A DNA stretch of 64,000 bases from an uncultured Bacteroidota bacterium (GCA_902561795.1 CACERG010000003.1:13693-77692), one strand, 5' to 3'; positions 10,849 to 37,161 are shown, counted from the first letter of the stretch. Notes: a model not told the origin generated them from the sequence alone. A program made the numbers and translations.

Positions 10849-10916
10849 TTTAAATAATCAAAATTTTGTTTTCAATTTAACAATTTAATTCTCTTTCAAG
10901 AGCTAATGTATATTGT

Positions 10917-16452: not shown

Positions 16453-16526
16453 TCCTCCTTAGCTCAGTTGGTTAGAGCATCTGACTGTTAATCAGAGGGT
16501 CCTTGGTTCGAGCCCAAGAGGGGGAG
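16453..16526 (+). tRNA. tRNA-Asn (anticodon GUU)
   Basis: Hand-folded cloverleaf, 74 nt, no encoded CCA. Acceptor stem TCCTCCT/AGGGGGA (one G-U pair), D stem GCTC/GAGC, anticodon stem TCTGA/TCAGA with loop CTGTTAA, and T arm CTTGG-TTCGAGC-CCAAG. Confidence 0.9.
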
Positions 16527-16571
16527 CAAGCTTAGCCGCTACACTACACATTACACAACAAGCATTCAAAG

Positions 16572-16597
16572 CCCTTCACTACGGTGAGGGGTTTTTT
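16572..16597 (+). terminator. rho-independent terminator after tRNA-Asn
   Basis: CCCTTCAC-TACG-GTGAGGGG followed by TTTTTT. Confidence 0.7.
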
Positions 16598-16633
16598 CTT
16601 ACAATTAAGTTTTAGGGGTTATTTCTTTTTTGG
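16598..16633 (+). promoter_or_regulatory. decayed remnant of the island promoter/leader module, with no + strand gene behind it
   Basis: TTCTTACAATTAAGTTTTAGGGGTTATTTCTTTTTTGG aligns with TTCTTAAAATTAAGTTTAGTGAGTAATTTGTATATTGG at 19134. It runs into the 3' end of a minus-strand gene. Confidence 0.3.
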
Positions 16634-17107
16634 TCTTTGATTTTCATAAACAATGATTCTACTAACTAAACCATCTTCAAGTTGTATATCTCCCATATGT
16701 AATACTACATTTTCTTCTCCATCTACATTTGATGTTAATGCAAAACCTGCAATTACCCATTTTTCTTTAGCTACAACTGAGTTGTATGGTAACATCCAAT
16801 ATGGTTTCCAAGTCACATTATTAGCAAAAAATGATTCAAGAACTTTAGAATGTTCATCTTGGCCATTAATGACTGTTCCATCTGGTAGCTCTATTTTAAT
16901 ATCAGCTTTTTCCATGGATAAAATTGATTCCATATCCCTTTCATTATGAGCATCTGCCCATTTTCTTATAAAATCTGTGGTTTCATCTGAACCAATCATA
17001 TAAGATTCCTCTTCACCTCTAATAGAGTAACCTGCAGTTTTTGGTTCTTGTTTTTGTTCTGCACAAGATGCAAATAGGATTGCAACTAACAATAAATATT
17101 TTTTCAT
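16619..17107 (-). CDS. NTF2/SnoaL-like lipoprotein
   Basis: 162 aa. Lipobox LFASC. The size and alpha+beta cone pattern (DFIRKWADAHNERDMESI…) are typical of SnoaL/DUF4440-like proteins. Confidence 0.55.
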   Translation of the reverse strand: MKKYLLLVAILFASCAEQKQEPKTAGYSIRGEEESYMIGSDETTDFIRKWADAHNERDMESILSMEKADIKIELPDGTVINGQDEHSKVLESFFANNVTWKPYWMLPYNSVVAKEKWVIAGFALTSNVDGEENVVLHMGDIQLEDGLVSRIIVYENQRPKKK

Positions 17108-17231
17108 TATGATTGATTTATAATTTAGAATCTAATATATGTAAAATTGAGTTGTGATATTCCTTTAAGTAAAAATTATCCATCATATCTAAAACATAGA
17201 TAATAGTGGTTAATGGAATCTAACATATCAA

Positions 17232-17638: not shown

Positions 17639-18139
17639 TCATTTAACGATTCTATAAATATTGTGCTGTGCTCGATAAGGTGATGGCGGATAAAAAAATT
17701 CTGTATCTGCAAATCCTACAGTATAATTAAGCCATTTATATTTTGAGCTTGAAGTTCTAAATCTCCAGCTTGTGTGCATAAAATCATTAGTATTTGATAT
17801 TGAGTCTTTTAAAATTAGTCCAAGTGCTTCACAGTATATTTTTTCACCTTCATCAGTCAACAGTACCATTCTAATATCATCTTCAATTAATGTTTTCCCA
17901 TCAATGTAAGTGTCAGAGTATAAGTTGAATGCACCACCTTGAGCAAGCAGTTTACCTTTTGCAACACCATCAAATACGCCGTTGGAGTATGGATAATAGC
18001 CTGATTTTAAATCCATAAATTCACCATATTGGTCATCTATCTCAACTTGCAGTTTTATGGAAAAAATTTTTTCAAATTTGACCTCTTGGGAAAAGCATTT
18101 GTAATTGATAATGAACAATAGGAAAATTATTTTTTTCAT
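17639..18139 (-). CDS. secreted beta-barrel protein, DUF3237-like
   Basis: 166 aa with a signal peptide. The patterns DIRMVLLTDEGEKIY and YKWLNYTVGFA resemble DUF3237/UPF0311. Assigned by eye only. Confidence 0.45.
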   Translation of the reverse strand: MKKIIFLLFIINYKCFSQEVKFEKIFSIKLQVEIDDQYGEFMDLKSGYYPYSNGVFDGVAKGKLLAQGGAFNLYSDTYIDGKTLIEDDIRMVLLTDEGEKIYCEALGLILKDSISNTNDFMHTSWRFRTSSSKYKWLNYTVGFADTEFFYPPSPYRAQHNIYRIVK

Positions 18140-18179
18140 TTTAATTGGTTTATAGTTAGCATTAAATTAAACATAAAAA

Positions 18180-18318
18180 TTTTACAGATATTGTTAATTC
18201 CGACAGACCTAAATACCACTGTCCAAATTGTTTTAATCTAAACCATAGGCATATCCAAATCTATTAAATTTAGGGACTAATTTGTATATTGTTGCTTATT
18301 AACCATAAATCAATTAAA
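18180..18318 (+). promoter_or_regulatory. island promoter/5'-leader module, long copy
   Basis: TTTTACAGAT…CCTAAATACCACTGTCCAAATT…CATATCCAAATCTATTAAATTTAGGGACTAATTTGTATATTGTTGCTTATTAACCATAAATCAATTAAA, followed by the ATG. About 140 nt align with 21832-21967. Confidence 0.6.
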
Positions 18319-19092
18319 ATGAAAAAACTTATTATTTTCACTTTTTTAGTTTCTATTAATATTTCTTCAGCTCAAATAATGGTCCTTTTTGAGGCAGAAA
18401 CTCCAGATAAACAAAACATGTCTCAAATAGCACAAAATTGGTTTGGTGCTGTTAAATCTGTTACTGGAGATGATAATGGGATTACAATGCATCACAAGGG
18501 ATGGGGGAGTAAAGGAGTATATTTTGTTCAATGGTTTAAAGACATGAAAGACATGGTAACAACTATGGAAAGTCAAGAATCAAAAACAAAAAAAGTAATG
18601 GAATATATTCAATCAAAACCTTCAGATCCAGAGTTATTAAAACAATTCAATTCAATTACTGATCCAAAACAAAGTTCTGTTTGGGAATATGTACCTGAAT
18701 TAAGTATGATGGAAGATTTTATGAAGTTATCAGTTCAGGAAAGAAACAAGATGGCATACAGAAGGTTTTCATTTATAAATGCAGGTATGAATTCTGGAGG
18801 GGAATTTGAAATGTTTAGAAAAAAGGGGAAAGAACTTGATGAAAAACGAGGTGTGAGTTATCATGTTGCTGTATTTAGAAATATTTTTGGAGGAAAAGAT
18901 GCGGACTACCTAACAATTCTAATCGATAAAACAAGAATGGATTACATGAACAATTTTATTAATAGAATGGATAAAAGAAGAAAAGCTAAAGATTGGAAAA
19001 CAAACAGAAACAGATGGGATTTAACTAAATACAATACAGTTAAAACTGAAGAAGTTTACAAAAATCTAGATTTTAAAATTTCAAGCAATTAG
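18319..19092 (+). CDS. secreted two-lobed protein of unknown function (island family B)
   Basis: 257 aa counted from MKKLIIFTFLVSINISSAQ. The TTG start at 18289 in the ORF track reads through the conserved leader (…INHKSIK) and is rejected. Confidence 0.65.
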   Translation: MKKLIIFTFLVSINISSAQIMVLFEAETPDKQNMSQIAQNWFGAVKSVTGDDNGITMHHKGWGSKGVYFVQWFKDMKDMVTTMESQESKTKKVMEYIQSKPSDPELLKQFNSITDPKQSSVWEYVPELSMMEDFMKLSVQERNKMAYRRFSFINAGMNSGGEFEMFRKKGKELDEKRGVSYHVAVFRNIFGGKDADYLTILIDKTRMDYMNNFINRMDKRRKAKDWKTNRNRWDLTKYNTVKTEEVYKNLDFKISSN

Positions 19093-19112
19093 TATAAAAA
19101 AATCAATTAATA

Positions 19113-19135
19113 CCCTCCCAAGCGGAGGGTTTTTT
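19113..19135 (+). terminator. rho-independent terminator (CCCTCC/GGAGGG type)
   Basis: CCCTCC-CAAGC-GGAGGG followed by TTTTTT. Confidence 0.75.
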
Positions 19136-19197
19136 CTTAAAATTAAGTTTAGTGAGTAATTTGTATATTGGCACCTTACAATAATAAATAAATTACG
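19136..19197 (+). promoter_or_regulatory. island promoter/5'-leader module copy
   Basis: TTAAAATTAAGTTTAGTGAGTAATTTGTATATTGG, then an A-rich leader and the ATG. Confidence 0.5.
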
Positions 19198-19482
19198 ATG
19201 AACAAATATCTTATAAAAAGATCAATTGAAGGGGCTTCGCAGATACCAAGTGAAAAACTCGATGAAATAGGACAAGGATCTGAATCGGTATTGATCGCTA
19301 TGAGAAATGAAGGAAAACAAATAGAACAAGACCATAGTTATATCGCTGGAAACAATGTTTTTTGTGTTTATAACTCAGATTCTGAGGATTTGATAAAAGA
19401 ACATTCTGAACGTGCTGGAGTTCCTGCCAATGAAATTACCTTAATATCAAGTATACTAGAGCATAATACCAATAACGATTAA
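19198..19482 (+). CDS. DUF4242 (SCO4226-like, nickel-binding ferredoxin-fold) protein
   Basis: 94 aa with no signal peptide. The pattern KYLIKRSIEGAS…SEKLDEI…HSYIAGNNVFCVYNSDSEDLIKEHSERAGVPANEIT matches the DUF4242 family layout. Confidence 0.7.
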   Translation: MNKYLIKRSIEGASQIPSEKLDEIGQGSESVLIAMRNEGKQIEQDHSYIAGNNVFCVYNSDSEDLIKEHSERAGVPANEITLISSILEHNTNND

Positions 19483-19552
19483 ATCATCGGTATATCCTCT
19501 TAAATAATTTCAAGGACTTCCTAAAACTGTTTAATTATTGCAAATCTAGGTA

Positions 19553-20191
19553 GTGCAAGTTATTAGTCTTAGAGATTTCAAAAACGAGGAGTTTTGGAAT
19601 GTTTTAACACATTTTTCAGGCTTTGTTTTATCTGTTATTGGGATACCTTTTTTATTCTATTTTGATAATGAAATTACGCCCTTAAGTTCGTTTTCACTTA
19701 TTTTATTCTCTATTGGTTTATTGCTTGTATATTCATCATCATCTATTTACCATTTTGTTATAAATCCCAAGCTTAAAAAAAGATTTCAGGTATTTGACCA
19801 TATAAGTATATATTATCTCATTTTGGGTTCATATGCGCCAGTATGCTTAGTAACTCTTTATAAATACTCGGGTACAAATATTTTTATTGCTGTACTAATT
19901 TTAACATTGGTGGGAACCTTAAAAAAACTGTTCTTGACAGGGAAATATCAATTTATATCTCTCTTGTTATATTTAGTTATGGGATGGCTTATAATTTTTG
20001 ACATAAATTCTCTTTTTAAATTGATTGATTTTAATGCTAAATTATTACTAATCTTAGGTGGAATTTCTTACACCTGCGGGGTTATATTTTATGTTTTAGG
20101 TAAGGTTAAATATTTCCATTCAATATGGCATCTATTTGTGTTAATTGGTTCTGGTTTTCATTACTTTATGATATTATTTTATGTAATCTAA
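19553..20191 (+). CDS. hemolysin III / PAQR family membrane protein
   Basis: 212 aa with 7 TM helices. Motifs: NVLTH, SSSIYH, DHISIY and SIWHLFVLIGSGFHY. GTG start. Confidence 0.85.
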   Translation: MQVISLRDFKNEEFWNVLTHFSGFVLSVIGIPFLFYFDNEITPLSSFSLILFSIGLLLVYSSSSIYHFVINPKLKKRFQVFDHISIYYLILGSYAPVCLVTLYKYSGTNIFIAVLILTLVGTLKKLFLTGKYQFISLLLYLVMGWLIIFDINSLFKLIDFNAKLLLILGGISYTCGVIFYVLGKVKYFHSIWHLFVLIGSGFHYFMILFYVI

Positions 20192-20198
20192 ATTATTG

Positions 20199-20267
20199 AT
20201 ATATCTTCATCACTAAGATTAGGGACTAATTTGTATATTGATTATTATTAACTATAAATCAATTAAA
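20199..20267 (+). promoter_or_regulatory. island promoter/5'-leader module copy
   Basis: GATATATCTTCATCACTAAGATTAGGGACTAATTTGTATATTGATTATTATTAACTATAAATCAATTAAA, followed by the ATG. Confidence 0.6.
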
Positions 20268-20747
20268 ATGAAAAATCTATTTACATTACTATTTCTATTA
20301 ACACTAACTTTTTCATTCTCTCAAGGCATTACGGGTAAAACAACAACTGATGACAAATACTCAAAAGCGATCAAAGCTTACATGAATGAATATTTACAAA
20401 ATAAATTTGATACATATGAAGAAATACACGCTGAAGATGCTGTTTTCGATTTAAACGGAATTGAAGCAAATAAGTCAACCGTTAAAAAAGGATGGAGTTC
20501 TCATCATAAAATCTACAGTAATATCAAATTAGAATGGATGTTTGTTGAAACTACAGTGTATGATGAAAACAACAATAATATGGTGTGGTCTCACATATGG
20601 GGTGGTTGGTCTGCTAAAGGCAATAAGACAAAAAAAAATTGGAGTAATCCATTTAACGCATCATTTAAGTGGGTTGATGGAAAAATTGTAATGGAGAATT
20701 GGATTTTTGACCCTACATCGGATATTACAGAAGCTGCTGCTAAATAA
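20268..20747 (+). CDS. secreted NTF2/SnoaL-like protein (island family A)
   Basis: 159 aa counted from MKNLFTLLFLLTLTFSFSQ. Close paralog of 23936-24421, sharing blocks YSNIK, FVETT.YDENNNN.VWSH.WG, KRTKKN and SFKWVDGKIV. Confidence 0.65.
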   Translation: MKNLFTLLFLLTLTFSFSQGITGKTTTDDKYSKAIKAYMNEYLQNKFDTYEEIHAEDAVFDLNGIEANKSTVKKGWSSHHKIYSNIKLEWMFVETTVYDENNNNMVWSHIWGGWSAKGNKTKKNWSNPFNASFKWVDGKIVMENWIFDPTSDITEAAAK

Positions 20748-20770
20748 CAATTTACTATTAAGATATAATA

Positions 20771-20797
20771 CCCTCCCAAGTGGTGAGTTTTTTTATA
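20771..20797 (+). terminator. degenerate copy of the CCCTCC/GGAGGG terminator
   Basis: TAATACCCTCCCAAGTGGTGAGTTTTTTT is homologous to 19108-19137, but only 4 of 6 stem pairs remain. Confidence 0.4.
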
Positions 20798-20803
20798 TCA
20801 TGG

Positions 20804-20871
20804 GCATATCCTCTTCATTAAATTTAGAGACTAATTTGCGTTTTCTTATTTATTAATAATCAATCAATCAA
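20804..20871 (+). promoter_or_regulatory. island promoter/5'-leader module copy (diverged core)
   Basis: GCATATCCTCTTCATTAAATTTAGAGACTAATTTGCGTTTTC…TTAATAATCAATCAATCAA, followed by the ATG. Confidence 0.5.
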
Positions 20872-21792
20872 ATGAAAAATATTCTAGAAACGGTTGGCAA
20901 TACACCAATAGTAAAACTTGAGAAAATTATTCCTTCAGGTTGTGGCGAAGTTTATGTAAAACTAGAGGCAAATAATCCAACAGGATCAAAAAAAGATAGA
21001 ATGGCCCTTTCTATGATTGAAGGAGCTGAAAAAAGAGGTGATTTAAAAGAAGGAATGTCTGTTGTTGAGTACTCTGGAGGTAGTACTGGAGCTGGATTAG
21101 CTTTTGTTTGTGCAATTAAAGGATATCGTTTCAGGTTAATTACTGCAGATGTTTTTGGGAAAGAAAAAATTGGCTTAATGAGAGCCTTGGGGGCAGATAT
21201 AGAAGTTATTAAAAGTGAAGATGGAAAAATCACTAAAGAACTTATTGGAAAGATGATTGAAAGGGCTGAAGAAATTTCTGTTGAACCGGATACATTTTTT
21301 ACGGATCAACTTAATAATATGGATGTTATTGAAGGTTTTGTTCCTCTAGGAGATGAGATACTCCAACAACTTGGCGGAAAAGTAGATGCTGTTTGTGACA
21401 CCATTGGAACAGCAGGAACATTAATGGGAATAGCAAAATCATTCAAAAATAATGGGGTTCACTCTAAAGTCATTGCCCTTGAGCCTGCAAGTTCTCCTAT
21501 ATTATCAAAAGGAATTAAAGGCGCTCATAATGTTGAAGGGGTTGGCCTTGGGTTTATTCCTGCTATATATAATTCTGAATATGTTGATGATGTTATTTCA
21601 ATTGAAGAATCCTTAGCAAGACATACTTGCAAGGAACTGGCTTCGAAGGAAGGAATATTTTGTGGTACTTCAAGTGGTATGAATGTAGCAGGTGCAATAA
21701 AATTATCTAAGAGCTTAGGACCAAAATCAAAAGTGGTTGCTGTAGCTTGTGATACAGGACTCAAATATCTTTCTGAAGGACTTTTTTATTAA
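20872..21792 (+). CDS. PLP-dependent cysteine synthase family protein
   Basis: 306 aa. PLP-lysine motif NPTGSKKDR, the SGGSTG loop, and GTAGTLMG, SSG and CDTGLKY blocks typical of the CysK/CysM/CBS fold. Confidence 0.8.
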   Translation: MKNILETVGNTPIVKLEKIIPSGCGEVYVKLEANNPTGSKKDRMALSMIEGAEKRGDLKEGMSVVEYSGGSTGAGLAFVCAIKGYRFRLITADVFGKEKIGLMRALGADIEVIKSEDGKITKELIGKMIERAEEISVEPDTFFTDQLNNMDVIEGFVPLGDEILQQLGGKVDAVCDTIGTAGTLMGIAKSFKNNGVHSKVIALEPASSPILSKGIKGAHNVEGVGLGFIPAIYNSEYVDDVISIEESLARHTCKELASKEGIFCGTSSGMNVAGAIKLSKSLGPKSKVVAVACDTGLKYLSEGLFY

Positions 21793-21831
21793 TACAAATA
21801 GTATTTTTCACATCTCAGTCTATGATATGAA

Positions 21832-21967
21832 TTTTACAGATTTTATAAATTCCAATTACCTAAACACCAATGTCCAAATTATATATTATAAATCATCGAC
21901 ATATACTCTTCATTGATTTCGGGGAGTAATTTGTATATTGAACATTATTAACCATAAATCAATTAAA
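21832..21967 (+). promoter_or_regulatory. island promoter/5'-leader module, long copy
   Basis: TTTTACAGATTTTATAAATTCC…CCTAAACACCAATGTCCAAATT…CATATACTCTTCATTGATTTCGGGGAGTAATTTGTATATTGAACATTATTAACCATAAATCAATTAAA, followed by the ATG. Confidence 0.6.
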
Positions 21968-22651
21968 ATGAAAAAAATACTATTAATATTTAGTTTATTT
22001 ATTTATTCCATATCCTTTTCACAACAAATATTTTGGTATGATGTTTTTTTAGAAGTGGAATCTAATGCATCTGTTGTTGCTGAACTAGTTGATGAATTTT
22101 ACTCAAATCATCCAAAATCATCTGATGTGAAAGTAGCTTTTTCATCCATACCTTTGAAAGGAGCTAGTGAAAAAGCAACTCACATAATTAGCATAAGTAG
22201 CGAATCATCTAAATCGCTTGCAGATTTTAGAAATTCTTTAAAAGGAAGCAATTGGGACTTATATATATCAAAAATGAGTAATTATATAAAAAGTAATAGG
22301 GCTAACGCTGGTAGAAGCCTAGTGACTAATGGTTCAAATTCCTCATATCCTATTGGTCAAGCATGGGTATTCAAAATTAAAAATAAGGACTTAAATTCAA
22401 CTATTCAAGCTTTTGACAAATTTGTAAAATCAACTGAATTTGATGGATTTGTTGGAATGGGACAAATTGTTCACGGTTCAGAAAACGGTGAAGGGGTATA
22501 TATATATGCTACATACGCTGATTTAAATCAAGCTTTTAATTTCGGCCCACGAAATAAAAAAGAAGGTGCGGCATTTGCAGAAATATTTGCTGCACTTGAT
22601 GTAGCTGAAGATTCAAAAACATTTACTAGAGTTCTTATAAAAAGCTACTAG
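21968..22651 (+). CDS. secreted two-lobed protein of unknown function (island family B-like)
   Basis: 227 aa counted from MKKILLIFSLFIYSISFSQ. No recognised motif. Confidence 0.6.
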   Translation: MKKILLIFSLFIYSISFSQQIFWYDVFLEVESNASVVAELVDEFYSNHPKSSDVKVAFSSIPLKGASEKATHIISISSESSKSLADFRNSLKGSNWDLYISKMSNYIKSNRANAGRSLVTNGSNSSYPIGQAWVFKIKNKDLNSTIQAFDKFVKSTEFDGFVGMGQIVHGSENGEGVYIYATYADLNQAFNFGPRNKKEGAAFAEIFAALDVAEDSKTFTRVLIKSY

Positions 22652-22660
22652 GTTTTATTC

Positions 22661-22690
22661 AAAATCCCCTAGCACCTTCTAGGGGATTTT
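22661..22690 (+). terminator. rho-independent terminator
   Basis: AAAATCCCCTAG-CACCTT-CTAGGGGATTTT. Confidence 0.75.
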
Positions 22691-22831
22691 ATATTCTTTC
22701 AAGTAATCCAAAAGTCAGAAGTTGTAATCACTCTAACAACTTAATAAATACTTCTTGATTTTTTTCTACAAAAAAATTGACATTAGTATAATATGTATAT
22801 TAGACATTGAAGAGTCTATAAATACTTCTTA

Positions 22832-23854
22832 ATGAAACGAAGAAAATTTATACAGGGATCAACAACTATAGCATCAGGACTTGGGTTTTCAGCTATTTCA
22901 TTTACTCAATTAGAATCAACTAAAACTAAACAATCCATAGAGACATATGTAACATTGGATCAGGAAAAAGTTTCTTTTTATAGTGATGTCATTAAAGAAA
23001 AAATAAAAATAATCCATATTGCAGACACACATCTTTTTATGGATGATGAAAGAGGGGTCCCCTTTTTAAACTTCAGTGGTCGAATGGCTAAAGCTTATAA
23101 TCAAACAAAACATTTCAAAACAGGAGAAAAAACAAATCCTAAGAAAGCCTTTAAGCAAGCAATAACTTTTGCTAAAGAATCAAATGCAGATGTTATCACT
23201 TTAGTAGGTGATATATTTAGTTTTCCATCTGAACTTGCAATTGAATGGGTTTTATCTGAAATAGAAGCGATTGGTATTCCATATATTTACATAGCAGGAA
23301 ATCATGATTGGCATTACGAAGGGATGGATGGCAGTCTTAATTCACTTCGTGATAAATGGATAGAAAAAAGATTAATTCCTTTATATCAAGGGAATAACCC
23401 CTTAATGGCAGCATATGATATAAAAGGTATTAGGTTTTTAGCCATTGATAATTCAACATACGAAATAAACAATAAACAATTGGATTTTTTTTCAAAACAT
23501 GTTGAATCTGGTATGCCTATTGTTTTGTTGATTCATATACCAATGTACGCTCCTGGGAAAAATATTTCGTTTGGATGTGGAAACCCTTTTTGGGGAGCTG
23601 AAACTGACCGTAATTTTGAATTAGAAAGACGTCCCAAATGGCCAGAAAATGGTCATACTAAAACAACATTTGAATTTTATAAAAAGGTTTTTGATTCATC
23701 TAATGTGATTGGAATTTTTGCTGGTCACATACATCGAAACTCTATTGAAATTATTAAAGGAAAACCTCAAATAGTTTCAGATGATAATGCGAGCGGGGCA
23801 TATCTAGAAATTGATTTTATTCCAATGGAAGAAAAGTATAAAGTTAAAAGTTAA
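22832..23854 (+). CDS. TAT-exported metallophosphoesterase
   Basis: 340 aa. Twin-arginine signal MKRRKFIQGS. Calcineurin-like motifs IADTH, VGDIF, AGNHDW and AGHIHR. Confidence 0.8.
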   Translation: MKRRKFIQGSTTIASGLGFSAISFTQLESTKTKQSIETYVTLDQEKVSFYSDVIKEKIKIIHIADTHLFMDDERGVPFLNFSGRMAKAYNQTKHFKTGEKTNPKKAFKQAITFAKESNADVITLVGDIFSFPSELAIEWVLSEIEAIGIPYIYIAGNHDWHYEGMDGSLNSLRDKWIEKRLIPLYQGNNPLMAAYDIKGIRFLAIDNSTYEINNKQLDFFSKHVESGMPIVLLIHIPMYAPGKNISFGCGNPFWGAETDRNFELERRPKWPENGHTKTTFEFYKKVFDSSNVIGIFAGHIHRNSIEIIKGKPQIVSDDNASGAYLEIDFIPMEEKYKVKS

Positions 23855-23862
23855 AAAACTGG

Positions 23863-23935
23863 ACATATCCTCTTAATTTTAAATTATATGAGACTTATTC
23901 GTATATTACTTACTATTAATCATAAACCAATTAAA
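23863..23935 (+). promoter_or_regulatory. island promoter/5'-leader module copy
   Basis: ACATATCCTCTTAATTTTAAATTATATGAGACTTATTCGTATATTACTTACTATTAATCATAAACCAATTAAA, followed by the ATG. Confidence 0.6.
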
Positions 23936-24421
23936 ATGAAAAATTTATTTATACTCTTATTTATTGCTAGTTCTTTTTACTCTTTAGCTCAAGAAATAAC
24001 TGGAACAGTAAGAACATCTGATAAGTATTCTAATGCAATTAAAAAAATGAATAGTGAATATTTTAAAAATGATTTTACAACATTTAAAAAGATTTTTAGT
24101 GATGATGCAACCTTTAGTGTAAATGGAGAAGAATTTTCAAAAAGTCAAATAATTGAAGGTTTTTCAATGCACCATAAATTTTACTCAAATATTAAGATGC
24201 AGTATAGTTTTGTTGAAACGACTTTTTATGATGAAAATAATAATAATCAAGTATGGAGTCATAATTGGGGACTTTGGGATGGGGTTTCAAAAAGAACTAA
24301 AAAAAATGTGCCCAACCCTGTGAATGTCTCATTTAAATGGGTTGATGGGAAAATTGTCAATGCTTCCTGGATATATGATCCAACACAATTGAATGAAGAA
24401 ATAATGGCCTCTCAAAAATAA
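23936..24421 (+). CDS. secreted NTF2/SnoaL-like protein (island family A)
   Basis: 161 aa counted from MKNLFILLFIASSFYSLAQ. Close paralog of 20268-20747. Confidence 0.65.
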   Translation: MKNLFILLFIASSFYSLAQEITGTVRTSDKYSNAIKKMNSEYFKNDFTTFKKIFSDDATFSVNGEEFSKSQIIEGFSMHHKFYSNIKMQYSFVETTFYDENNNNQVWSHNWGLWDGVSKRTKKNVPNPVNVSFKWVDGKIVNASWIYDPTQLNEEIMASQK

Positions 24422-24450
24422 AATAAATTAAAATATTTAATACATTAAAG

Positions 24451-24480
24451 GACCCTTCAAATATGGAGGGTCTTTTATTT
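24451..24480 (+). terminator. rho-independent terminator (CCCTYC/GGAGGG type)
   Basis: GACCCTTC-AAATAT-GGAGGGTC followed by TTTTATTT. Confidence 0.7.
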
Positions 24481-24483
24481 ACC

Positions 24484-24551
24484 TGTATATGCTTTATTTT
24501 AAATTTAGGGACTGATTCGTATATTCACTCAGCTAAATAATAATCGATTAA
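24484..24551 (+). promoter_or_regulatory. island promoter/5'-leader module copy
   Basis: TGTATATGCTTTATTTTAAATTTAGGGACTGATTCGTATATTC…AATAATCGATTAA, followed by the ATG. Confidence 0.5.
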
Positions 24552-25277
24552 ATGAAAAAAATAGTTAATAGATTTTGGGAGTTTTTAATGTTATTTATTG
24601 CTATTTCACTAGGTTTTTTTGTTGAGAATTATAGGGAAGTGTTAGTCGATAGACAAAAAGAAAAAGAAATAATAGCATCATTTATTAATGACCTTGAAAC
24701 CGACATTAAAGAGTTAGATATTGTAATTCAACGAAGACAAACAAGAGAAGTAAGGATAGATTCAATTATATATATTTTAAATAATGGTTTACAAGATGAT
24801 TATGGAAAAGATCTTTACTATTATGCGAGGTACTTACCTCGCCCTGTGGTGTTTTGGGCAAACAATACAACAAATGAAGAGTTAAAATATTCTGGAAATT
24901 TTATTTTAATAAAAAACCAAAAGATAATTGATACCCTCTTACAATATAACGACAATTTTATTTTCATTGATTTCATAAAAGAAAGGGAGGAATATTTAGT
25001 AAGGAGACTATTTGATCAAATAAATGTGATGTTTGATCCCATGGTTTTCGATGAGATGAATGTTTATGATATAGAATTTGTTTATCCCTCCGGAAATCCA
25101 AAAATAAATACCAAAAATAAGGATGTGATTAACCTTTTTTTAAGCAATTTACACTATGTAAAAACAGTAAATGTAGGACAGCTAGGGCTTTTCAAAAGAC
25201 ATCAAAAAAAAGCAAAAGAAATTTTAAACTTTATAAAGGAAGAATATCCTGATGTGGCAGCTGAAAAACGCAAATAA
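24552..25277 (+). CDS. N-terminally anchored hypothetical protein (paralog of 34451-35185)
   Basis: 241 aa. A single N-terminal TM helix is followed by the motif VENYRE and a helical region. The layout matches the 34451 product (VDNYRE). Confidence 0.55.
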   Translation: MKKIVNRFWEFLMLFIAISLGFFVENYREVLVDRQKEKEIIASFINDLETDIKELDIVIQRRQTREVRIDSIIYILNNGLQDDYGKDLYYYARYLPRPVVFWANNTTNEELKYSGNFILIKNQKIIDTLLQYNDNFIFIDFIKEREEYLVRRLFDQINVMFDPMVFDEMNVYDIEFVYPSGNPKINTKNKDVINLFLSNLHYVKTVNVGQLGLFKRHQKKAKEILNFIKEEYPDVAAEKRK

Positions 25278-25281
25278 CTAT

Positions 25282-25626
25282 CTAACTACCCTCGAAAATA
25301 GAAAGATTTCTTACAACAGTTTCTCCGGGATTATCGCCAAGTTCATTTAAGGCTTCTTGATATTCTTTGCTATTATGACAATTTATAGCGTCTTGTAAAC
25401 TATTAAACTCTACAACTGCTGCAAACATTAAATCTGAACCCTGAATTTTACCTTTAGGCTGACCTGTGAGCACAGGTAAATAGTTTCCAGTTTGTTCATT
25501 TTTATGTTTTTCTTCAATTTGAAAGTATTTTGTTAAGTAGTTATTCCATCTTTCTTCATTTTTAATTTCAATTACATTTCCTATCCAATATCCTTTTTTC
25601 ATTTTATTATGATTTGATTTATTCAT
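25282..25626 (-). CDS. DUF1330-like (dimeric alpha-beta barrel) protein
   Basis: 114 aa. Pattern GYWIGNVIEIKNEERWNNY…AAVVEFNSLQDAINCHNSKEYQEAL resembles DUF1330. Confidence 0.55.
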   Translation of the reverse strand: MNKSNHNKMKKGYWIGNVIEIKNEERWNNYLTKYFQIEEKHKNEQTGNYLPVLTGQPKGKIQGSDLMFAAVVEFNSLQDAINCHNSKEYQEALNELGDNPGETVVRNLSIFEGS

Positions 25627-25782
25627 CTAATATATAGAATGATTTTATGTAAAATAATTTCTTGTATCATCAAATTATATTAATTATTCAGATATAAATA
25701 TTATAAAGCATTTAAGTTTATTTAAGTGCTCCTGCTATCGTTTCATTAAAAATTAATAATTTTATTTATATAAATATTTGAT

Positions 25783-25872
25783 ATGTGTAATTGTGATTGT
25801 TCCCCTTGTAAAGAATTAGATTGTTCAGCATGTATTTGCGAACCCTGTAGTTGTTCTCCTTGTGATTGTTAG
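25783..25872 (+). CDS. 29-aa cysteine-rich peptide, metallothionein-like (unannotated small ORF)
   Basis: An ATG followed by 28 sense codons and a TAG encodes MCNCDCSPCKELDCSACICEPCSCSPCDC. It has 11 Cys in 29 residues, arranged as CxC, CxxC and CxxxxC. It is below the ORF-track length cut-off. Confidence 0.5.
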   Translation: MCNCDCSPCKELDCSACICEPCSCSPCDC

Positions 25873-25896
25873 TTCAACAATAAAAATTCTTGTATT

Positions 25897-26148
25897 TCAT
25901 TTCTTTTTTAATTTTTTGTGTTCAATTATTTCTGGAACCCCTCCCTTGAGATCATCTATCAGAATATGTGGAGTTTGTTTTCGTATCCATTGATAAATCA
26001 CACCCCTTATAAATTCAGTTTGAGTGGGATATTTACCGAATTTGTCTTTTGCCTCGTTTGAAACGATCGCCTGTCTTATATAGTCCACGAATTGCGTTGA
26101 AGCATTAAACTTAATTTGATTACTATATTGAATTTTGGTTTTTGGCAT
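25897..26148 (-). CDS. small putative DNA-binding protein, ribbon-helix-helix-like
   Basis: 83 aa. The N-terminal segment NQIKFNASTQFVDYIRQAI fits a beta-strand plus helix, followed by a second helix (TQTEFIRGVIYQWIRK) and a basic tail. A perfect palindrome lies 34 nt upstream. Confidence 0.45.
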   Translation of the reverse strand: MPKTKIQYSNQIKFNASTQFVDYIRQAIVSNEAKDKFGKYPTQTEFIRGVIYQWIRKQTPHILIDDLKGGVPEIIEHKKLKKK

Positions 26149-26181
26149 CAGAATAACTTTTTGTCAATAAAATTTTTACAG

Positions 26182-26198
26182 GTACCTTTCAAAGGTAC
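26182..26198. promoter_or_regulatory. perfect 8-1-8 palindrome, candidate operator
   Basis: GTACCTTT-C-AAAGGTAC lies upstream of the minus-strand 83-aa gene. An extra half-site-like GTACCT occurs near 26236. Confidence 0.4.
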
Positions 26199-26403
26199 TT
26201 ATATTATTGAAAAAAAAAATATATAAAGTCTTTTTGATGTTTTTTGTACCTAAAAATACCTCTAGCATATTATTTAAAAAGTAAAATTGTTATTTTTTCC
26301 ATATTTATTAATAAAAAATCCAAATTTTTAGCTATTTTATGAGATTTTTAGAAGAAAAGTGCAAGTTTTTACGAATTTTTTAACTTGTTTCATTAATTTC
26401 TGC

Positions 26404-26462
26404 TTCATTTAATTTTAAAAAACATATTTGTATCTTAAAGTTTCAATCATAAATCAATTAAT
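26404..26462 (+). promoter_or_regulatory. island promoter/5'-leader module copy (diverged)
   Basis: TTCATTTAATTTTAAAAAACATATTTGTATCTTAAAGTTTCAATCATAAATCAATTAAT, followed by the ATG. Confidence 0.45.
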
Positions 26463-27236
26463 ATGAAAAATTTAATTTTTGTAGTTATACTCTTTACATC
26501 AATATTTATTCATGCTCAAACAACAGTAATGATTGCTGTTGTGCTTGAAGATGGTAAAGAAAATGAATATCTCCAGTATGAAAAAAACTGGAATAAAGTT
26601 GCTGACCAAATGGTAAAAGATAATTTGATTGCTCAATGGTCAGTGTGGAAAAGAACTCCTAGAGATGGAGACGAAAATTGGGCACAATATTATGTTTTTA
26701 GAAGAACAACAAAGGAGCAGGACGAGAATCTTGATACAAATGCTTGGAAAAAGTCAACTAAAACTGCATTTAAGGGTAAAAGTCAAAAGACAATAGATAA
26801 ATTACTGTCCTCTAGCGGAATAGTTAAAGAAAACAGAAGTAGAACCTACAAATGGGTATCTGGTACTGGATGGAGAGGATTAGAATGGGAAATAGGTGAT
26901 AAGGGCTATTTTCATTTTATGAAACAAAATAATGATGATTTTGAAGATTATGAAAGATCAGTTTGGAAACCTATAGCTCAGCAACAAATTCTTGACGGTT
27001 ACAGAAAATTTTGGGGTCTTGCCAAAATCATATCAAAAAATGATTACACAAAAAAATTAGAGTCAGGTTTCACCCATATTGCATTTAATTTTATGACAAA
27101 AAAGGAAATGCCACAGGGCACAGAGTACAATATAATAGAGGACGAATTTTTAAGGGAAAAGGCTTTTGAGGGACTTCAAGCATCAAGGGAAATGCTACCT
27201 TCCGAAGAACTCACTTTAGTATATTCAACTTTTTAA
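26463..27236 (+). CDS. secreted two-lobed protein of unknown function (island family B)
   Basis: 257 aa with signal peptide …FIHAQ. It shares its layout and scattered motifs (W.K.A……W.…KR) with 28126-28896. Confidence 0.65.
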   Translation: MKNLIFVVILFTSIFIHAQTTVMIAVVLEDGKENEYLQYEKNWNKVADQMVKDNLIAQWSVWKRTPRDGDENWAQYYVFRRTTKEQDENLDTNAWKKSTKTAFKGKSQKTIDKLLSSSGIVKENRSRTYKWVSGTGWRGLEWEIGDKGYFHFMKQNNDDFEDYERSVWKPIAQQQILDGYRKFWGLAKIISKNDYTKKLESGFTHIAFNFMTKKEMPQGTEYNIIEDEFLREKAFEGLQASREMLPSEELTLVYSTF

Positions 27237-27248
27237 TGACAAAAATTG

Positions 27249-27274
27249 ACCCTCCAAAACTGGAGGGTTTTTTT
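27249..27274 (+). terminator. rho-independent terminator (CCCTCC/GGAGGG type)
   Basis: ACCCTCCA-AAAC-TGGAGGGT followed by TTTTTT. Confidence 0.8.
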
Positions 27275-27299
27275 AAAATATTAGGAAATCTTTATTTAT

Positions 27300-27347
27300 C
27301 AATTTCATGCACTTCTTTGTATATTGATGGATCTTAATTTTATTTTT
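27300..27347 (+). promoter_or_regulatory. island promoter module copy (core only)
   Basis: The core CTTTGTATATTG at 27315-27326 is 21 nt upstream of the ATG. The leader has diverged. Confidence 0.4.
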
Positions 27348-27860
27348 ATGAAAACAAACATCTTATTTATTGCAACAATTGTATCAATACTTTTTTTAGC
27401 TTGTAACTCTCAACAAAATAGTACTCCCCAAAAAGCAGAAAATCAAATAGGTATAATTAAAGGAAATGATTTTCGCTCCAGTGCGATGATTACATTTATG
27501 GATGCTTATGTTAATAACAACCTAAGTAGCGTTGCTGATTTATTTACTCCTGATGCGAAAATAATGATAAATGATGCTGATTTAACCTTTTCCCAAATGG
27601 CAGAAGGATTTTCAGCAGGTCATCAATATTTTGAAAATATTCGCCACGAAAATAGAGATGCTTTTACTATGCATTACGAAGATGGTAAACCGGCAGGAAA
27701 TATTTTTACACATTGCTGGTATACTTGGAAAGCAACAAGTAAAAAAACAGGTGAAGAACTTTCAATAAGAGGCTATGCTTGGATGAAATGGAAAGATGAT
27801 AAGGTTGAAACAGTTTATAATGCATTTGATCCTACCATGTATAACGCTTCTATGAATTAA
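27348..27860 (+). CDS. NTF2/SnoaL-like lipoprotein (island family A, distant member)
   Basis: 170 aa counted from MKTNILFIATIVSILFLAC (lipobox). It shares motifs F.DAYV.N, GF…H.YF.NI, H.WY.WKA.SKKT, KWKDDKV and DPT with 20268 and 23936. Confidence 0.6.
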   Translation: MKTNILFIATIVSILFLACNSQQNSTPQKAENQIGIIKGNDFRSSAMITFMDAYVNNNLSSVADLFTPDAKIMINDADLTFSQMAEGFSAGHQYFENIRHENRDAFTMHYEDGKPAGNIFTHCWYTWKATSKKTGEELSIRGYAWMKWKDDKVETVYNAFDPTMYNASMN

Positions 27861-27865
27861 AATGA

Positions 27866-28054
27866 GTGAATCAAATAAATAAAAATCTGTCATTTTTTGC
27901 AATCATTTTAATGGTTGTAAGTGCTTTTTCAACGGCAGAGGAACAAATCGATAATTCCAATTCTATTCAGGAAACAGAATCAAATCCAAATGGATTTTTC
28001 TGGAGAAACGATAATGGAGTACTAGTTCAAACGGAATATGAGTTTTGTTTATAG
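27866..28054 (+). CDS. possible small secreted peptide
   Basis: 62 codons from a GTG 5 nt after the previous stop, with a hydrophobic N-terminus (LSFFAIILMVVSAFSTAEE). It has no module and no terminator of its own. Confidence 0.3.
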   Translation: MNQINKNLSFFAIILMVVSAFSTAEEQIDNSNSIQETESNPNGFFWRNDNGVLVQTEYEFCL

Positions 28055-28075
28055 AAAATAACTATGAAAAAATAA

Positions 28076-28125
28076 TTTATTGAGTAATTCGTATATTGCT
28101 GTTTATTAACCATAAATCAATTTAA
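28076..28125 (+). promoter_or_regulatory. island promoter/5'-leader module copy
   Basis: TTTATTGAGTAATTCGTATATTGCTGTTTATTAACCATAAATCAATTTAA, followed by the ATG. Confidence 0.55.
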
Positions 28126-28896
28126 ATGAAAACATTTAATAAACTTATATTAACTTTTCTTTTAATGTTTGCTGTAAATATTTCAGCACAAGGAGTATTT
28201 TATTTACATGGAGTTCGTGTTCCTTACAAATTTCAAGAAAATTTTGAAAGCAATCAAAAGCAATATTTTTCTAAACTAGCTCAAGATTATGTCAATTCTG
28301 GTAAAATGCAAGGCTGGGCTTTATTAAAAAGGGTATCACGTGTAGGTGATTCAGAAGATTATAAATTTAATTATTTTTGGGTTCACGGTTTTGAGAGTAT
28401 TGATCAAATGATTTCAGCACAAGCGGATCCATTTTGGAATAAATTTGAAAGCAAATTTAAAAAGAAGCCAAGTGAATTATTAAAAGAATCTCGATCTATA
28501 AAAAGTGGCACTTATTATTTTAAAACGTATGATCAGTTTAGTACAGGTCAAGGTAAATATGTGATATTAAATGATGGAAAGGTGAAGGATATACAAATGG
28601 CTTTAGATATGGGAAAACAAACTGGTAAAATTTTTAAAAAGAATTCGAAAAAATCTGGAATGAAAGGATGGGGAGTTGCTACAGTCATTGCACCTCAGGA
28701 TAAACATAATACAAGTAATGTATTTTATTGGGACATATATGACACATTAGCAAATGCAATGAAACATATGGCAGGGGAAGCCGCTATATTAGACATACCT
28801 GATGAAATGGCAGGTAAATTTTATGAAAATCTTCCAGATGGTTTCTCACACAGGAATATAACAGAAATTATTATTGGCACTACTCCTAAAGAGTAA
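28126..28896 (+). CDS. secreted two-lobed protein of unknown function (island family B)
   Basis: 256 aa with signal peptide …NISAQ. Similar to 26463-27236. Confidence 0.65.
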   Translation: MKTFNKLILTFLLMFAVNISAQGVFYLHGVRVPYKFQENFESNQKQYFSKLAQDYVNSGKMQGWALLKRVSRVGDSEDYKFNYFWVHGFESIDQMISAQADPFWNKFESKFKKKPSELLKESRSIKSGTYYFKTYDQFSTGQGKYVILNDGKVKDIQMALDMGKQTGKIFKKNSKKSGMKGWGVATVIAPQDKHNTSNVFYWDIYDTLANAMKHMAGEAAILDIPDEMAGKFYENLPDGFSHRNITEIIIGTTPKE

Positions 28897-28913: not shown

Positions 28914-28948
28914 TAAAAAAAAACCCTCTAAAATGGAGGGTTTTTTTT
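28914..28948. terminator. bidirectional rho-independent terminator
   Basis: A-run, then CCCTCT-AAAAT-GGAGGG, then T-run, between two convergent genes. Confidence 0.8.
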
Positions 28949-28950
28949 AA

Positions 28951-29883
28951 TTATATATCAAATTTTGAAAGCGAGGCCCTTACCCTTTTAAGTTTGGCTC
29001 CCACCTCCATTTTGTTAAGTTCTTTATTGAAAGGTTCGACACTAACAGCCCCTTTGTAACCTTTATTTCTAATAAAATTCAAGAAGTTTTTTAAGTCAAT
29101 TATCCCAGTATCTCCTGGCAACTCCCTTTCTAGGTCCATCTGAGTAGCAACAGTTCTACCTAATACTCCATCGTTTAATTGTACTGATATAATATCTTCA
29201 GCTTTTAAAAAATTAAGGTCCTCATTTTTATCTTCAGCACAATAAGTGTGATAGCTATCAAGCAAATAACCGACATTATTTTTACCAATAGCTCCAATAA
29301 GCTCTCTTAATCCCAATGCACTGTGTAAAAAGGGGTATTTGTCTCTTGCCATTAGTGTTTTTGGCCCCACATATTCTAATCCTAATTTTAGTCCAGCATC
29401 CTCTAGAACAGTCGCAACTTGAGTTAATCGAGTTCTGTGCTGTTCAAAATTTTTCATGTACGGCAAAGTTTTGTGGGTAGGCATGATCCATGTCACAAAA
29501 CTGTTAATATTTAAAGAAACAATTGAATCTATGTTTTTTAATAAAAAATCATATCCCTCTTTAAACTTTGAATCTGTTGTTCTAAATTGGATCGGTAAAC
29601 CCCCTGAGTCAAAAATGATTTTATTTTTTTCCATTTTTTCTAAATAACCCTTTTTATCAGTTTCCTTAAACTGAATCAGCTCTGTTATTGGGGGACTTAT
29701 GGCTGAAAACTTATACTTAATTGCATAATCTAATAATTCATTAGCTGTACATTTAAGACCAATAGCTCCTGGACTTAGTGACGCTTTTAGGGTTTTTCGA
29801 GTACCAATTAATTCAGAACTAATTAAAAATGGACTTGTTAAAGCAACTGAAAAAGATTGAATAAAGTGTCTTCTGTTTGACAT
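28951..29883 (-). CDS. TAT-exported sugar phosphate isomerase/epimerase (xylose isomerase-like TIM barrel)
   Basis: 310 aa. Twin-arginine signal MSNRRHFIQS. The pattern of the AP-endonuclease-2/xylose-isomerase-like barrel family is present (…LGLEYVGP…, …LLDSYH…, …VSVEPFN…). Confidence 0.7.
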   Translation of the reverse strand: MSNRRHFIQSFSVALTSPFLISSELIGTRKTLKASLSPGAIGLKCTANELLDYAIKYKFSAISPPITELIQFKETDKKGYLEKMEKNKIIFDSGGLPIQFRTTDSKFKEGYDFLLKNIDSIVSLNINSFVTWIMPTHKTLPYMKNFEQHRTRLTQVATVLEDAGLKLGLEYVGPKTLMARDKYPFLHSALGLRELIGAIGKNNVGYLLDSYHTYCAEDKNEDLNFLKAEDIISVQLNDGVLGRTVATQMDLERELPGDTGIIDLKNFLNFIRNKGYKGAVSVEPFNKELNKMEVGAKLKRVRASLSKFDI

Positions 29884-34401: not shown

Positions 34402-34409
34402 TAATTTTG
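34402..34409 (+). promoter_or_regulatory. canonical -7 box TAATTTTG
   Basis: Exact match to TAnnTTTG, 42 nt upstream of the ATG at 34451. Confidence 0.4.
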
Positions 34410-37120: not shown

Positions 37121-37161
37121 TTTCTAATCATTTGTATATTTAATAACTAAATTTTATAGCC
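37121..37161 (+). promoter_or_regulatory. promoter with the island-type core TTTGTATATT
   Basis: AATCATTTGTATATTTAATAAC has its core at 37131-37140, 21 nt upstream of the proposed ATC start. Confidence 0.4.

Follow-up and report, generated by a model that had tools for sequence, protein, structure and literature searches.

We analysed a 64-kb stretch of DNA from an uncultured Bacteroidota bacterium (GCA_902561795.1, CACERG010000003.1:13693-77692; 32% GC; hereafter the window), in which an array of short, mostly plus-strand genes at 16.6-28.9 kb carries, directly upstream of one gene after another, copies of a conserved module of ~95 nt that runs up to the start codon. The module has a defined anatomy, is conserved under selection, is specific for accessory genes encoding exported proteins, and marks the points at which strains differ by cassette-sized units. 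With moderate confidence, we interpret it as a portable, non-canonical promoter joined to a complete, optimised 5′ untranslated region (5′UTR) that would serve accessory exported proteins, its repeated copies doubling as joints for a cassette turnover driven by homologous recombination. The module combines two known kinds of arrangement, namely a promoter and leader of the type seen in regulons and a cassette array bounded by repeats, and no description of it was found in the literature on its motif strings and on flavobacterial cassette arrays.

The array has a GC content of 29.6%, versus 33% in its flanks, and contains 11 plus-strand and two minus-strand genes with recognisable module copies between 16.6 and 28.2 kb. 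The original prediction on this DNA had proposed a homologous module before consecutive plus-strand genes, and three approaches concur with it. A direct-repeat search recovers nine to ten copies of a 50-73-nt unit, each ending at a start codon named in that prediction; the regions 5′ of the ATG codons in the array can be aligned to one another; and an nhmmer profile derived from the window copies yields nine plus-strand matches in the 64 kb searched (E-values from 8e-16 to 1.5e-6), with no further match of comparable strength in the rest of the 64 kb. The 23-nt leader TTAACCATAAATCAATTAAAATG occurs seven times in the window at no more than three mismatches, against 0.01 occurrences expected.

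In the close relatives of the window, the consensus of the whole module is aaATCATCGGCATATCCTCTTCATTAAGTTTAGGGAC-TAATTTG-TATATTG-N5-TTATTAACYATAAATCAATTAAA-ATG-AAAAAA. Its core consists of two adjacent TAnnTTG boxes (TAATTTG-TATATTG), followed by about five variable bases and by an A-rich block of ~22 nt, (T)TATTAACYATAAATCAATTAAA, that extends to ATG-AAA-AAA. Core and leader are common to all carriers; the 30-nt element upstream of the core (ATCATCGGCATATCCTCTTCATTAAGTT) is confined to the low-GC genomes closest to the window. For copies with standard geometry, columns -28 to -24 are nearly information-free and are flanked by the conserved blocks TTTGTATATT and TTATTAAC...ATG. Among the matches listed, the distance from CAAT to the ATG is fixed (4 nt in 40 of 60 copies and 5 nt in 14), and core and leader are 8-18 nt apart, most often 14. 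The combination of a variable core-to-leader distance with a fixed leader-to-ATG distance indicates two separate elements, not the halves of a single sigma-factor site. Near-invariant positions of the leader other than A (C at -8 and -16; T at -5, -9 and -13) are kept across genomes of 29-41% GC, in a logo whose leader columns are conditioned by the search pattern.

The core departs from the canonical Bacteroidetes sigma-A promoter, which is defined by TTTG at -33 and TAnnTTTG at -7, the latter refined to TAHHTTTG (PMC6847099). Within 40 nt 5′ of the leader, TAHHTTTG is present in three of 84 leader-anchored copies, TAnnTTG in 45, TAnnTTGY in 37 across genomes and TT[TC]GTA in 69. Housekeeping genes of the window carry TAHHTTTG 7-74 nt before their starts, with boxes at 2924 (aminopeptidase), 8945 (RseP-type M50 protease), 8857 on the minus strand (SCO1) and 2835 on the minus strand (succinate dehydrogenase cytochrome subunit); further boxes lie at 34402 and 34427, before gene 34451. 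The module box resembles the sigma-A box in being T/A-rich, in ending in TTG, in its distance to the start codon and in belonging to the same phylum, but the defining 8-mer is missing from 81 of the 84 copies and present at the neighbouring housekeeping genes, so that the module, in line with the prediction, is not the generic promoter of this organism.

The prediction had also remarked that the module box is one nucleotide short, and this deviation fits a published class, the SM5 motif TAnnTTGY, located at -12 to -5 of mapped transcription starts and confirmed by mutagenesis in Flavobacterium psychrophilum (Guerin et al. 2021, PMC9723704). The match to TAnnTTGY, one base shorter than the sigma-A box, is exact for TAATTTGT at 18278, 19157, 20227 and 21927, for TAATTTGC at 20832 and for TATATTGT (or its variant with C as last base) at 18285 and 28092, and TATATTG(T/C) fits in many copies. 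In F. psychrophilum, SM5 precedes lipopolysaccharide, gliding/surface and amino-acid-scavenging genes and the median 5′UTR is 24 nt (PMC9723704); an association with envelope and surface is shared by the module, and so are short 5′UTRs, predicted here at ~22 nt. The module differs in having two tandem boxes, in embedding them in a longer conserved unit (the whole 5′UTR and, in one lineage, 30 nt upstream) and in being repeated on accessory-cassette arrays, and its match to the class is one of sequence. We infer that the core is probably an SM5-type flavobacterial promoter. TAnnTTGT boxes 24-31 nt before the start, the distance of the second box of the module, also precede four window genes without a module (a type IX secretion system M4 peptidase, a 334-aa lipoprotein, a SOUL protein and a giant 1929-aa protein), against a back-of-envelope chance expectation of ~0.6 in that distance range; all but the SOUL protein are visibly exported.

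Under this assignment, the two TAnnTTG boxes would form a non-canonical promoter of the SM5 kind and the ~5 variable bases would be the unconstrained -5 to -1 stretch between box and transcription start. With the second box acting as -7 element, transcription would start at the T/A that opens the conserved block, and the block would constitute a complete 5′UTR of 21-22 nt; with the first box in that role, the 5′UTR would be ~29 nt long. The upstream 30-nt element would then lie at about -55 to -26, a place where an activator or an upstream promoter contact could be accommodated. By-eye comparison with the -24/-12 spacing of sigma-54, extracytoplasmic-function-type GAAC...CGT promoters, dif/Xer-like sites and the Fur box identified none that matches the conserved positions, and a scan with the sigma-70 consensus, which is uninformative in this phylum, returned 72 sites versus 80 expected.

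The leader has A at positions -1, -2, -3, -6, -7, -10, -11, -12 and -14. Ribosome profiling and reporters in Flavobacterium johnsoniae have established that A at -3, -6, -12 and -13, together with low structure, favours initiation without a Shine-Dalgarno sequence (Baez et al. 2019, PMC6847099). In 40 folded copies, the segment from the start of the putative transcript to +30 has no excess fold stability (mean minimum free energy -3.4 kcal/mol, mean z 0.1), the mean z of the whole module is 0.0, and a search of Rfam at permissive E-values over 16-29.5 kb returned a tRNA and terminator look-alikes below threshold, and nothing else. The fold and Rfam results do not bear out the control leader suggested in the prediction insofar as it would act through RNA structure. 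A few bases of the upstream element are complementary to the start region (TTCATT/AATGAA); anti-start-codon pairing was dismissed, given that the module as a whole shows no sign of folding and that the element is probably located 5′ of the transcript start. As judged from its bases, the leader fits a highly efficient initiation region, and the conserved block would run on into ATG-AAA-AAA as the beginning of signal peptides. It shares with the Kozak-like, A-rich initiation regions of Bacteroidetes the absence of structure, A at -3, -6 and -11/-12 and the lack of a Shine-Dalgarno sequence; the latter regions, however, reflect a genome-wide statistical preference, whereas here a specific 20-nt sequence recurs nearly base for base before unrelated genes.

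Selection on core and leader can be separated from mere copying. Among 41 modules that precede proteins of different BLAST clusters, identity amounts to 0.78 in the 23-nt leader, 0.36 in the 5-nt spacer, which is about random for its composition, and 0.38 in the upstream region from -95 to -45. Since a spacer would be copied together with its flanks in duplication or gene conversion, a random spacer between conserved flanks indicates selection, in agreement with the earlier argument that the conservation is no by-product of gene duplication. In orthologs with 62% protein identity, synonymous sites are saturated and the leader and TTTGTA are kept, which again argues for selection rather than recency. 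For orthologs with at least 90% protein identity (third-codon identity 0.88), the values are 0.58 for the spacer, 0.59 for the upstream region, 0.99 for the core and 0.93 for the leader; the low spacer and upstream identities imply that the heads before the same gene are often not orthologous.

The distribution of the module was assessed in a single pattern scan (TTTGTAN{8,18}AACYATAAAYCAAT) of 185,579 species genomes, which returned at least 118 blocks of up to 8 kb. About half of the matches listed fall in other phyla, where they occur singly, by chance and without a gene following them; the remaining ones lie in single-amplified and metagenome-assembled genomes of marine Flavobacteriaceae of 29-41% GC, including AG-891-I06, AG-892-D16, AG-894-L18, AG-920-B11, SCGC AAA795-G10, ERR599163_bin.87, Candidatus Arcticimaribacter, TMED179 and North Sea bins. 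In these carriers the pattern is followed by TAAA-ATG and an open reading frame (ORF) of 55-432 aa, giving at least 60 unique copies, and every correct-geometry copy among the matches listed belongs to such a marine Flavobacteriaceae genome. A profile of at least 60 copies produced at least 103 nhmmer matches in the fetched DNA, and five further arrays have 5-9 copies per 8-16 kb, on either strand. By nucleotide identity, the closest relatives of the window are AG-894-L18 (98-99%), SCGC AAA795-G10 (95-96%, with one segment at 92%) and AG-920-B11 (94%).

Homologs of the protein encoded at 18319 all come from marine metagenomes or metagenome-assembled Flavobacteriaceae genomes. In one set of loci (L006-L009/L084), the ortholog is only 62% identical in protein, yet six module-preceded genes are found within 10 kb, five of them with signal-peptide-like N-termini and one from a family anchored by a transmembrane (TM) helix; the module form in L006-L009 is (G)ATTTTGTA-N12-16-AACCATAAAYCAAT-N-ATG. 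Another ortholog (L005) is preceded by AATTCGTATAATT...AACTATAAACCAAATTAA-ATG. A scan of 2.9 million viral contigs gave 48 pattern matches, none with the geometry of TAAA-ATG followed by an exported ORF, which serves as a negative control for the pattern and speaks against phages as the vehicle; on this result, the unit does not qualify as a prophage moron or as a cassette carried by phages. Outside Flavobacteriaceae, the pattern lies 12 nt before the gene of a 252-aa signal-peptide protein in two Sunxiuqinia genomes (Prolixibacteraceae; L037, 4393-4421, and L077, 4171-4199), which may be a related leader or a chance match preserved by orthology.

The genes behind the module encode predominantly exported proteins of unrelated families. 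Signal-peptide-like N-termini, called with a crude heuristic (a basic N-terminus plus a hydrophobic stretch, many with a lipoprotein cysteine), are present in 80 of 88 distinct downstream proteins (91%) versus 43% (114 of 263) of the remaining ORFs at these loci. The diversity of families reported in the prediction is confirmed by Pfam, which assigns SCO4226-like, HlyIII, PALP, Metallophos, SnoaL_2 and DUF3237 families in the window and leaves several proteins without a family; the array cargo comprises three 256-257-aa proteins and one 227-aa protein without known family, NTF2/SnoaL-like proteins and a TM-anchored protein. Across genomes, cargo proteins fall into at least 34 BLAST similarity clusters, among them families of 227-265 aa without known function, SnoaL/NTF2 subfamilies, beta-lactamase-like, esterase and metallo-beta-lactamase enzymes, and DUF1059, YgaP-like TM and TPR proteins. 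In a search of NCBIfam with ten proteins, the only match was to the cysteine-synthase-like (PALP) gene, below cut-off, and an exact-protein look-up found no identical protein on record for the product of that gene. For the 257-aa family, the AlphaFold model has a pLDDT of 48, and sequence and profile searches found no meaningful relative in PDB.

Differences between strains are cassette-sized, and alignments of the window to its relatives break at modules. SCGC AAA795-G10 lacks exactly the module, gene and terminator of the 23936 cassette, with the left flank of one module joined to the body of the next. AG-920-B11 shares 19142-21985, a segment that opens with the first base of a module and closes 17 nt beyond the start codon of another, and has different cassettes on both sides; in AG-894-L18, an additional cassette separates 20268 from 20872, and an 18319-type module is fused to the 20268 gene; and in ERR599163_bin.87 four extra cassettes are inserted inside the upstream element at 19498-19505. 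Eleven of 14 distinct non-edge synteny breakpoints lie within 30 nt of a module, versus 13% expected (P = 6e-8), a statistic that shows the unit of variation and not the mechanism of recombination. The junctions themselves are scattered: some coincide with the upstream edge of the module, others fall within it or 4-17 nt beyond the ATG. The cassette is thus the unit of variation, and its heads are mosaic. Variability extends to the other side of the tRNA-Asn that borders the array: in AG-894-L18 (L118), window position 10889 is joined directly to ~16261, and the missing segment encodes a 1545-aa M4 (thermolysin-like) peptidase with a type IX secretion system C-terminal sorting domain.

Many units end in terminator-like hairpins of a similar CCCTCC...GGAGGG type, and most units are therefore probably monocistronic. 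One such intrinsic-terminator-like hairpin closes a cassette at 19112..19130 on the plus strand (repeat families D10 and D13); similar hairpins lie at 22661-22690, 24454-24470, 27248-27269 and 28916-28948, with an imperfect copy at 20768-20791. Since a separate module and, in most cases, a separate terminator belong to every gene, neighbouring units are homologous to one another only in the repeated modules. Homologous recombination within modules, unequal or between strains and presumably of the RecA type, could then add, delete and re-head cassettes and so produce hypervariable arrays, while the genes behind the modules would be efficiently translated and co-regulated.

Several points weigh against interpreting the module as promoter, 5′UTR and recombination joint. 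The genome scan was conditioned on TTTGTA and AACYATAAAYCAAT, and this conditioning, together with the listing of matches, biases per-genome copy numbers and some identities. The SM5 class was defined in a different genus, and it has no assigned sigma factor in the F. psychrophilum study (PMC9723704). Eight of the 88 cargo proteins are not signal-peptide-like. High-scoring segment pairs end at module edges partly because modules are the only sequence common to different neighbours. Finally, a general A-richness leaves the invariant C at -8 and -16 and the T positions of the leader unexplained, making a sequence-specific reader, protein or RNA, possible.

Such a reader is the substance of the best surviving alternative, which we nevertheless consider unlikely: the leader, and perhaps the upstream element, would be the binding site of a dedicated trans-acting regulator (an RNA-binding protein, a small RNA, or a DNA repressor or activator), the genes would form one tightly co-regulated regulon of exported proteins, and recognition instead of translation efficiency would explain the conservation. 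The constancy of the C and T positions across genomes of widely different GC content speaks for such a regulator, as do the fixed placement of the leader relative to the ATG, the strong conservation of the 30-nt element among paralogous copies in the close relatives of the window and the lack of a canonical box in the cargo promoters. However, no candidate regulator is encoded in or beside the arrays, the leader motif is neither palindromic nor clearly repeated, and the leader columns on which the argument draws are those shaped by the search pattern. Some orthologs, moreover, lack the leader: in L001-L004, at 79% protein identity, the TATATTGT box is kept ahead of a different 45-nt leader, so that the module is not obligatory for the family. 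A regulator of this kind is compatible with a promoter and 5′UTR module and would add to that explanation, not replace it.

It is very unlikely that the module has no special function and is an ordinary local promoter and leader, copied by tandem duplication and kept similar by gene conversion. Paralogs do occur among the cargo (four NTF2-like proteins and the three of 256-257 aa), the copies of any one genome are sufficiently repetitive to allow gene conversion, and the upstream element does not extend beyond the close relatives of the window. Against this stand the occurrence of core and leader in genomes of different genera and GC content, before 34 or more protein clusters, the random identity of the spacer between conserved flanks, the strong enrichment for exported proteins and the near-complete absence of the canonical box from module copies.

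Least probable of all is an integron-like or rAID-like system that uses the module as its recombination site and has its tyrosine recombinase encoded elsewhere. The presence or absence of cassette-sized units with boundaries at modules would fit such a site, as would the abutment of the array on tRNA-Asn, a tyrosine integrase N-terminus (Arm-DNA-bind_5) beside the same tRNA in AG-892-D16 (L127, 1-235) and a Phage_integrase gene ~6 kb from a small island in L176 (16566-17825). Either integrase may play some part. The integrase of L127, however, lies on the side of the tRNA away from the array, no fragment of the tRNA-Asn is duplicated as an att duplicate would be, and the modules have neither hairpin potential nor consistent inverted repeats. 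No recombinase is found among the array, flank and window ORFs scanned with Pfam, as the prediction had noted, and none is evident in the five other arrays of 9-16 kb, examined as ORF maps with only a few ORFs domain-scanned. Junction positions differ between events, and phage copies of correct geometry are absent from the viral scan. The cassette idea of the prediction accordingly holds in its descriptive part, namely that whole units differ and breakpoints lie at modules, but not as a site-specific mobilising site.

In integrons, most cassettes have no promoter, an attC that folds is located at the 3′ end, and IntI is required. The arrays resemble integrons in that single-gene units vary between strains; they differ in that each unit has its own promoter-like head and terminator, in that hairpins are lacking and an integrase is not among the window ORFs scanned, and in that the module, with its promoter features, sits at the 5′ end fixed to the ATG, whereas attC is a hairpin at the 3′ end. 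The rAID-1 arrays of gut Bacteroidales combine a conserved XerD-family recombinase with orphan immunity genes (Ross et al. 2019; bioRxiv 10.1101/471110), and, like the arrays described here, they belong to Bacteroidota and line up small genes on one strand over a long distance, with repetitive intergenic sequences and a slightly lower GC content than the flanks. Here, though, the hosts are marine Flavobacteriaceae, the window has no XerD-family recombinase (which in rAID-1 stands at the head of the array), and the cargo includes enzymes and many exported proteins of unknown function. PADLOC returned no match to anti-phage defence families for ten array proteins, and no immunity family is among the Pfam matches of the cargo, which include PALP, esterase, beta-lactamase-like and metallo-beta-lactamase enzymes. 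Membership in rAID-1, the closest analogy offered by the prediction, is not borne out in the absence of a recombinase, a hairpin and a defence family match.

Extending the promoter, 5′UTR and joint interpretation, we advance more tentatively the possibility that marine Flavobacteriaceae possess a recombinase-independent analogue of the integron, in which a ~95-nt head would activate whichever gene follows it, subject to a single dedicated control, and would also provide the shared homology for capture, loss and exchange of exported-protein genes within and between species. The control could be exerted by an SM5-type sigma factor or an activator, possibly with a factor that reads the leader, and the outcome would be hypervariable "exoproteome islands". 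Marine Flavobacteriaceae with small genomes rank among the major degraders of organic matter from algae, and their strain-level differences in gene content mostly concern unexplained hypothetical exported proteins. Used as a sequence tag, the module offers a handle for finding strain-variable exported-protein genes and suggests their expression through a non-canonical promoter class and a highly optimised, Shine-Dalgarno-less leader; recombination at a shared head would be a concrete mechanism for island diversification. Standard bacterial promoters and ribosome-binding sites fail in this phylum, and for genetic studies there the module would be a compact native expression cassette.

Individual copies in the window vary in completeness; E-values below are those of the window-copy profile, followed where available by those of the profile of at least 60 copies. 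All copies are on the plus strand unless stated otherwise. Full modules, with upstream element, TAATTTG-TATATTG core, leader and ATG, lie at 18239..18326 before gene 18319..19092 (8e-16; 2e-16), at 20189..20274 before the NTF2-like gene 20268..20747 (4e-14; 2e-14) and at 21889..21975 before gene 21968..22651, of the 227-aa exported family (5e-15; 3e-16). Core and leader without the upstream element are found at 28076..28132, before gene 28126..28896 (5e-12; 9e-9). The leader is decayed in the modules at 19127..19204 (gene 19198..19482; 6e-12), directly 3′ of the terminator at 19112-19130, at 20794..20879 (the PALP gene 20872..21792, so assigned by Pfam and NCBIfam; 3e-11) and at 24487..24557 (the gene of the TM-anchored protein, 24552..25277; 3e-10; repeat family D7). 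A module with core TTATTCGTATATTA at 23861..23942 precedes the NTF2-like gene 23936..24421 (4e-11), and one with a weaker core and a good leader at 26402..26469 precedes gene 26463..27236 (1.5e-6).

These nine plus-strand copies were all among the ten enumerated in the original prediction; the tenth, before the SnoaL-like gene 27348..27860, is a weak core-only copy, TTCTTTGTATATTG, at 27298..27355 (63% identity in the repeat search; nhmmer E = 6, not significant). Its enumeration was also incomplete. It had missed a weak, decayed module at 22789..22834 (TAATATGTATATTA at 22789 ... TCTATAAATAC ... ATG), located by motif search and alignment before the metallophosphoesterase gene 22832..23854 (assigned by Pfam), and an upstream element alone (TAAATCATCGGTATATCCTCTT...; repeat families D6 and D8) at 19479..19518, which begins at the stop codon of 19198..19482 and lies 5′ of the HlyIII gene 19553..20191. 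On the minus strand, two leader copies can be added: CTAACTATAAACCAATTAAAATG at 18135..18178, for the DUF3237 gene 17639..18139 (mismatch search and nhmmer), and the diverged AATTATAAATCAATCATAATG at 17103..17146, for the NTF2-like gene 16619..17107 (repeat family D17 and nhmmer). The remnant placed near 16598 and the core-only copy placed near 37131 were both recovered. The former, at 16589..16633, is a gene-less remnant of the upstream part of the module (repeat family D18; 80% identical to 19127-19171) at the edge formed by tRNA-Asn (16453..16527, plus strand), the left border of the variable array. The latter, TCATTTGTATATTT at 37128..37141, was found by motif search ~15-20 nt 5′ of the probable real start of a giant exported protein.

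That protein, the 1929-aa ORF listed from the ATG at 37435, is open in frame back to 37147, and the extension encodes a signal peptide. The extension (37147-37435) contains no ATG, GTG or TTG, and the start is probably an ATA or ATC at ~37156-37162, 15-20 nt past TCATTTGTATATTT. The modules of 18319 and 21968 share ~130 nt of upstream homology, within which an inverted, imperfect core copy (reverse complement TAATTTGGACATTG) lies at 21868-21881 and at 18213-18226; it seems that a region of divergent promoters was copied whole, although no divergent gene accompanies 21968. The gap that separates cassette 27348 from cassette 28126 is filled by a 62-aa ORF with a GTG start and a hydrophobic N-terminus (27866-28054), which has no module of its own; the alignment with SCGC AAA795-G10 breaks inside this ORF, at 27989-27991, and it may be what is left of a cassette.

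Proteins of 235-257 aa that carry a single N-terminal TM helix make up a family found repeatedly in the arrays examined (window 24552-25277 and 34451-35185; L006, 7374-8081; L176, 10001-10735). It has no match in Pfam or NCBIfam and 192 homologs, all unnamed and marine, and its genes are often convergent with a small gene, encoding a DUF1330 protein in the window and L176 and a SnoaL lipoprotein in three other arrays; this family could be a conserved component of the islands. Twin-arginine-type N-termini are present in the metallophosphoesterase encoded at 22832-23854 (MKRRKFIQGS) and in a xylose-isomerase-like TIM-barrel protein encoded at 28951-29883 on the minus strand (MSNRRHFIQS). In mid-array, a minus-strand gene at 25897-26148 encodes an 83-aa protein that matches no family. 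The canonical -7 box of this gene (TACCTTTG) is enclosed by a perfect palindrome, GTACCTTTGAAAGGTAC, at 26180-26200, and the gene is kept at 79% nucleotide identity in AG-891-I06 (L124); from these features, its product looks like a small, autoregulated DNA-binding protein.

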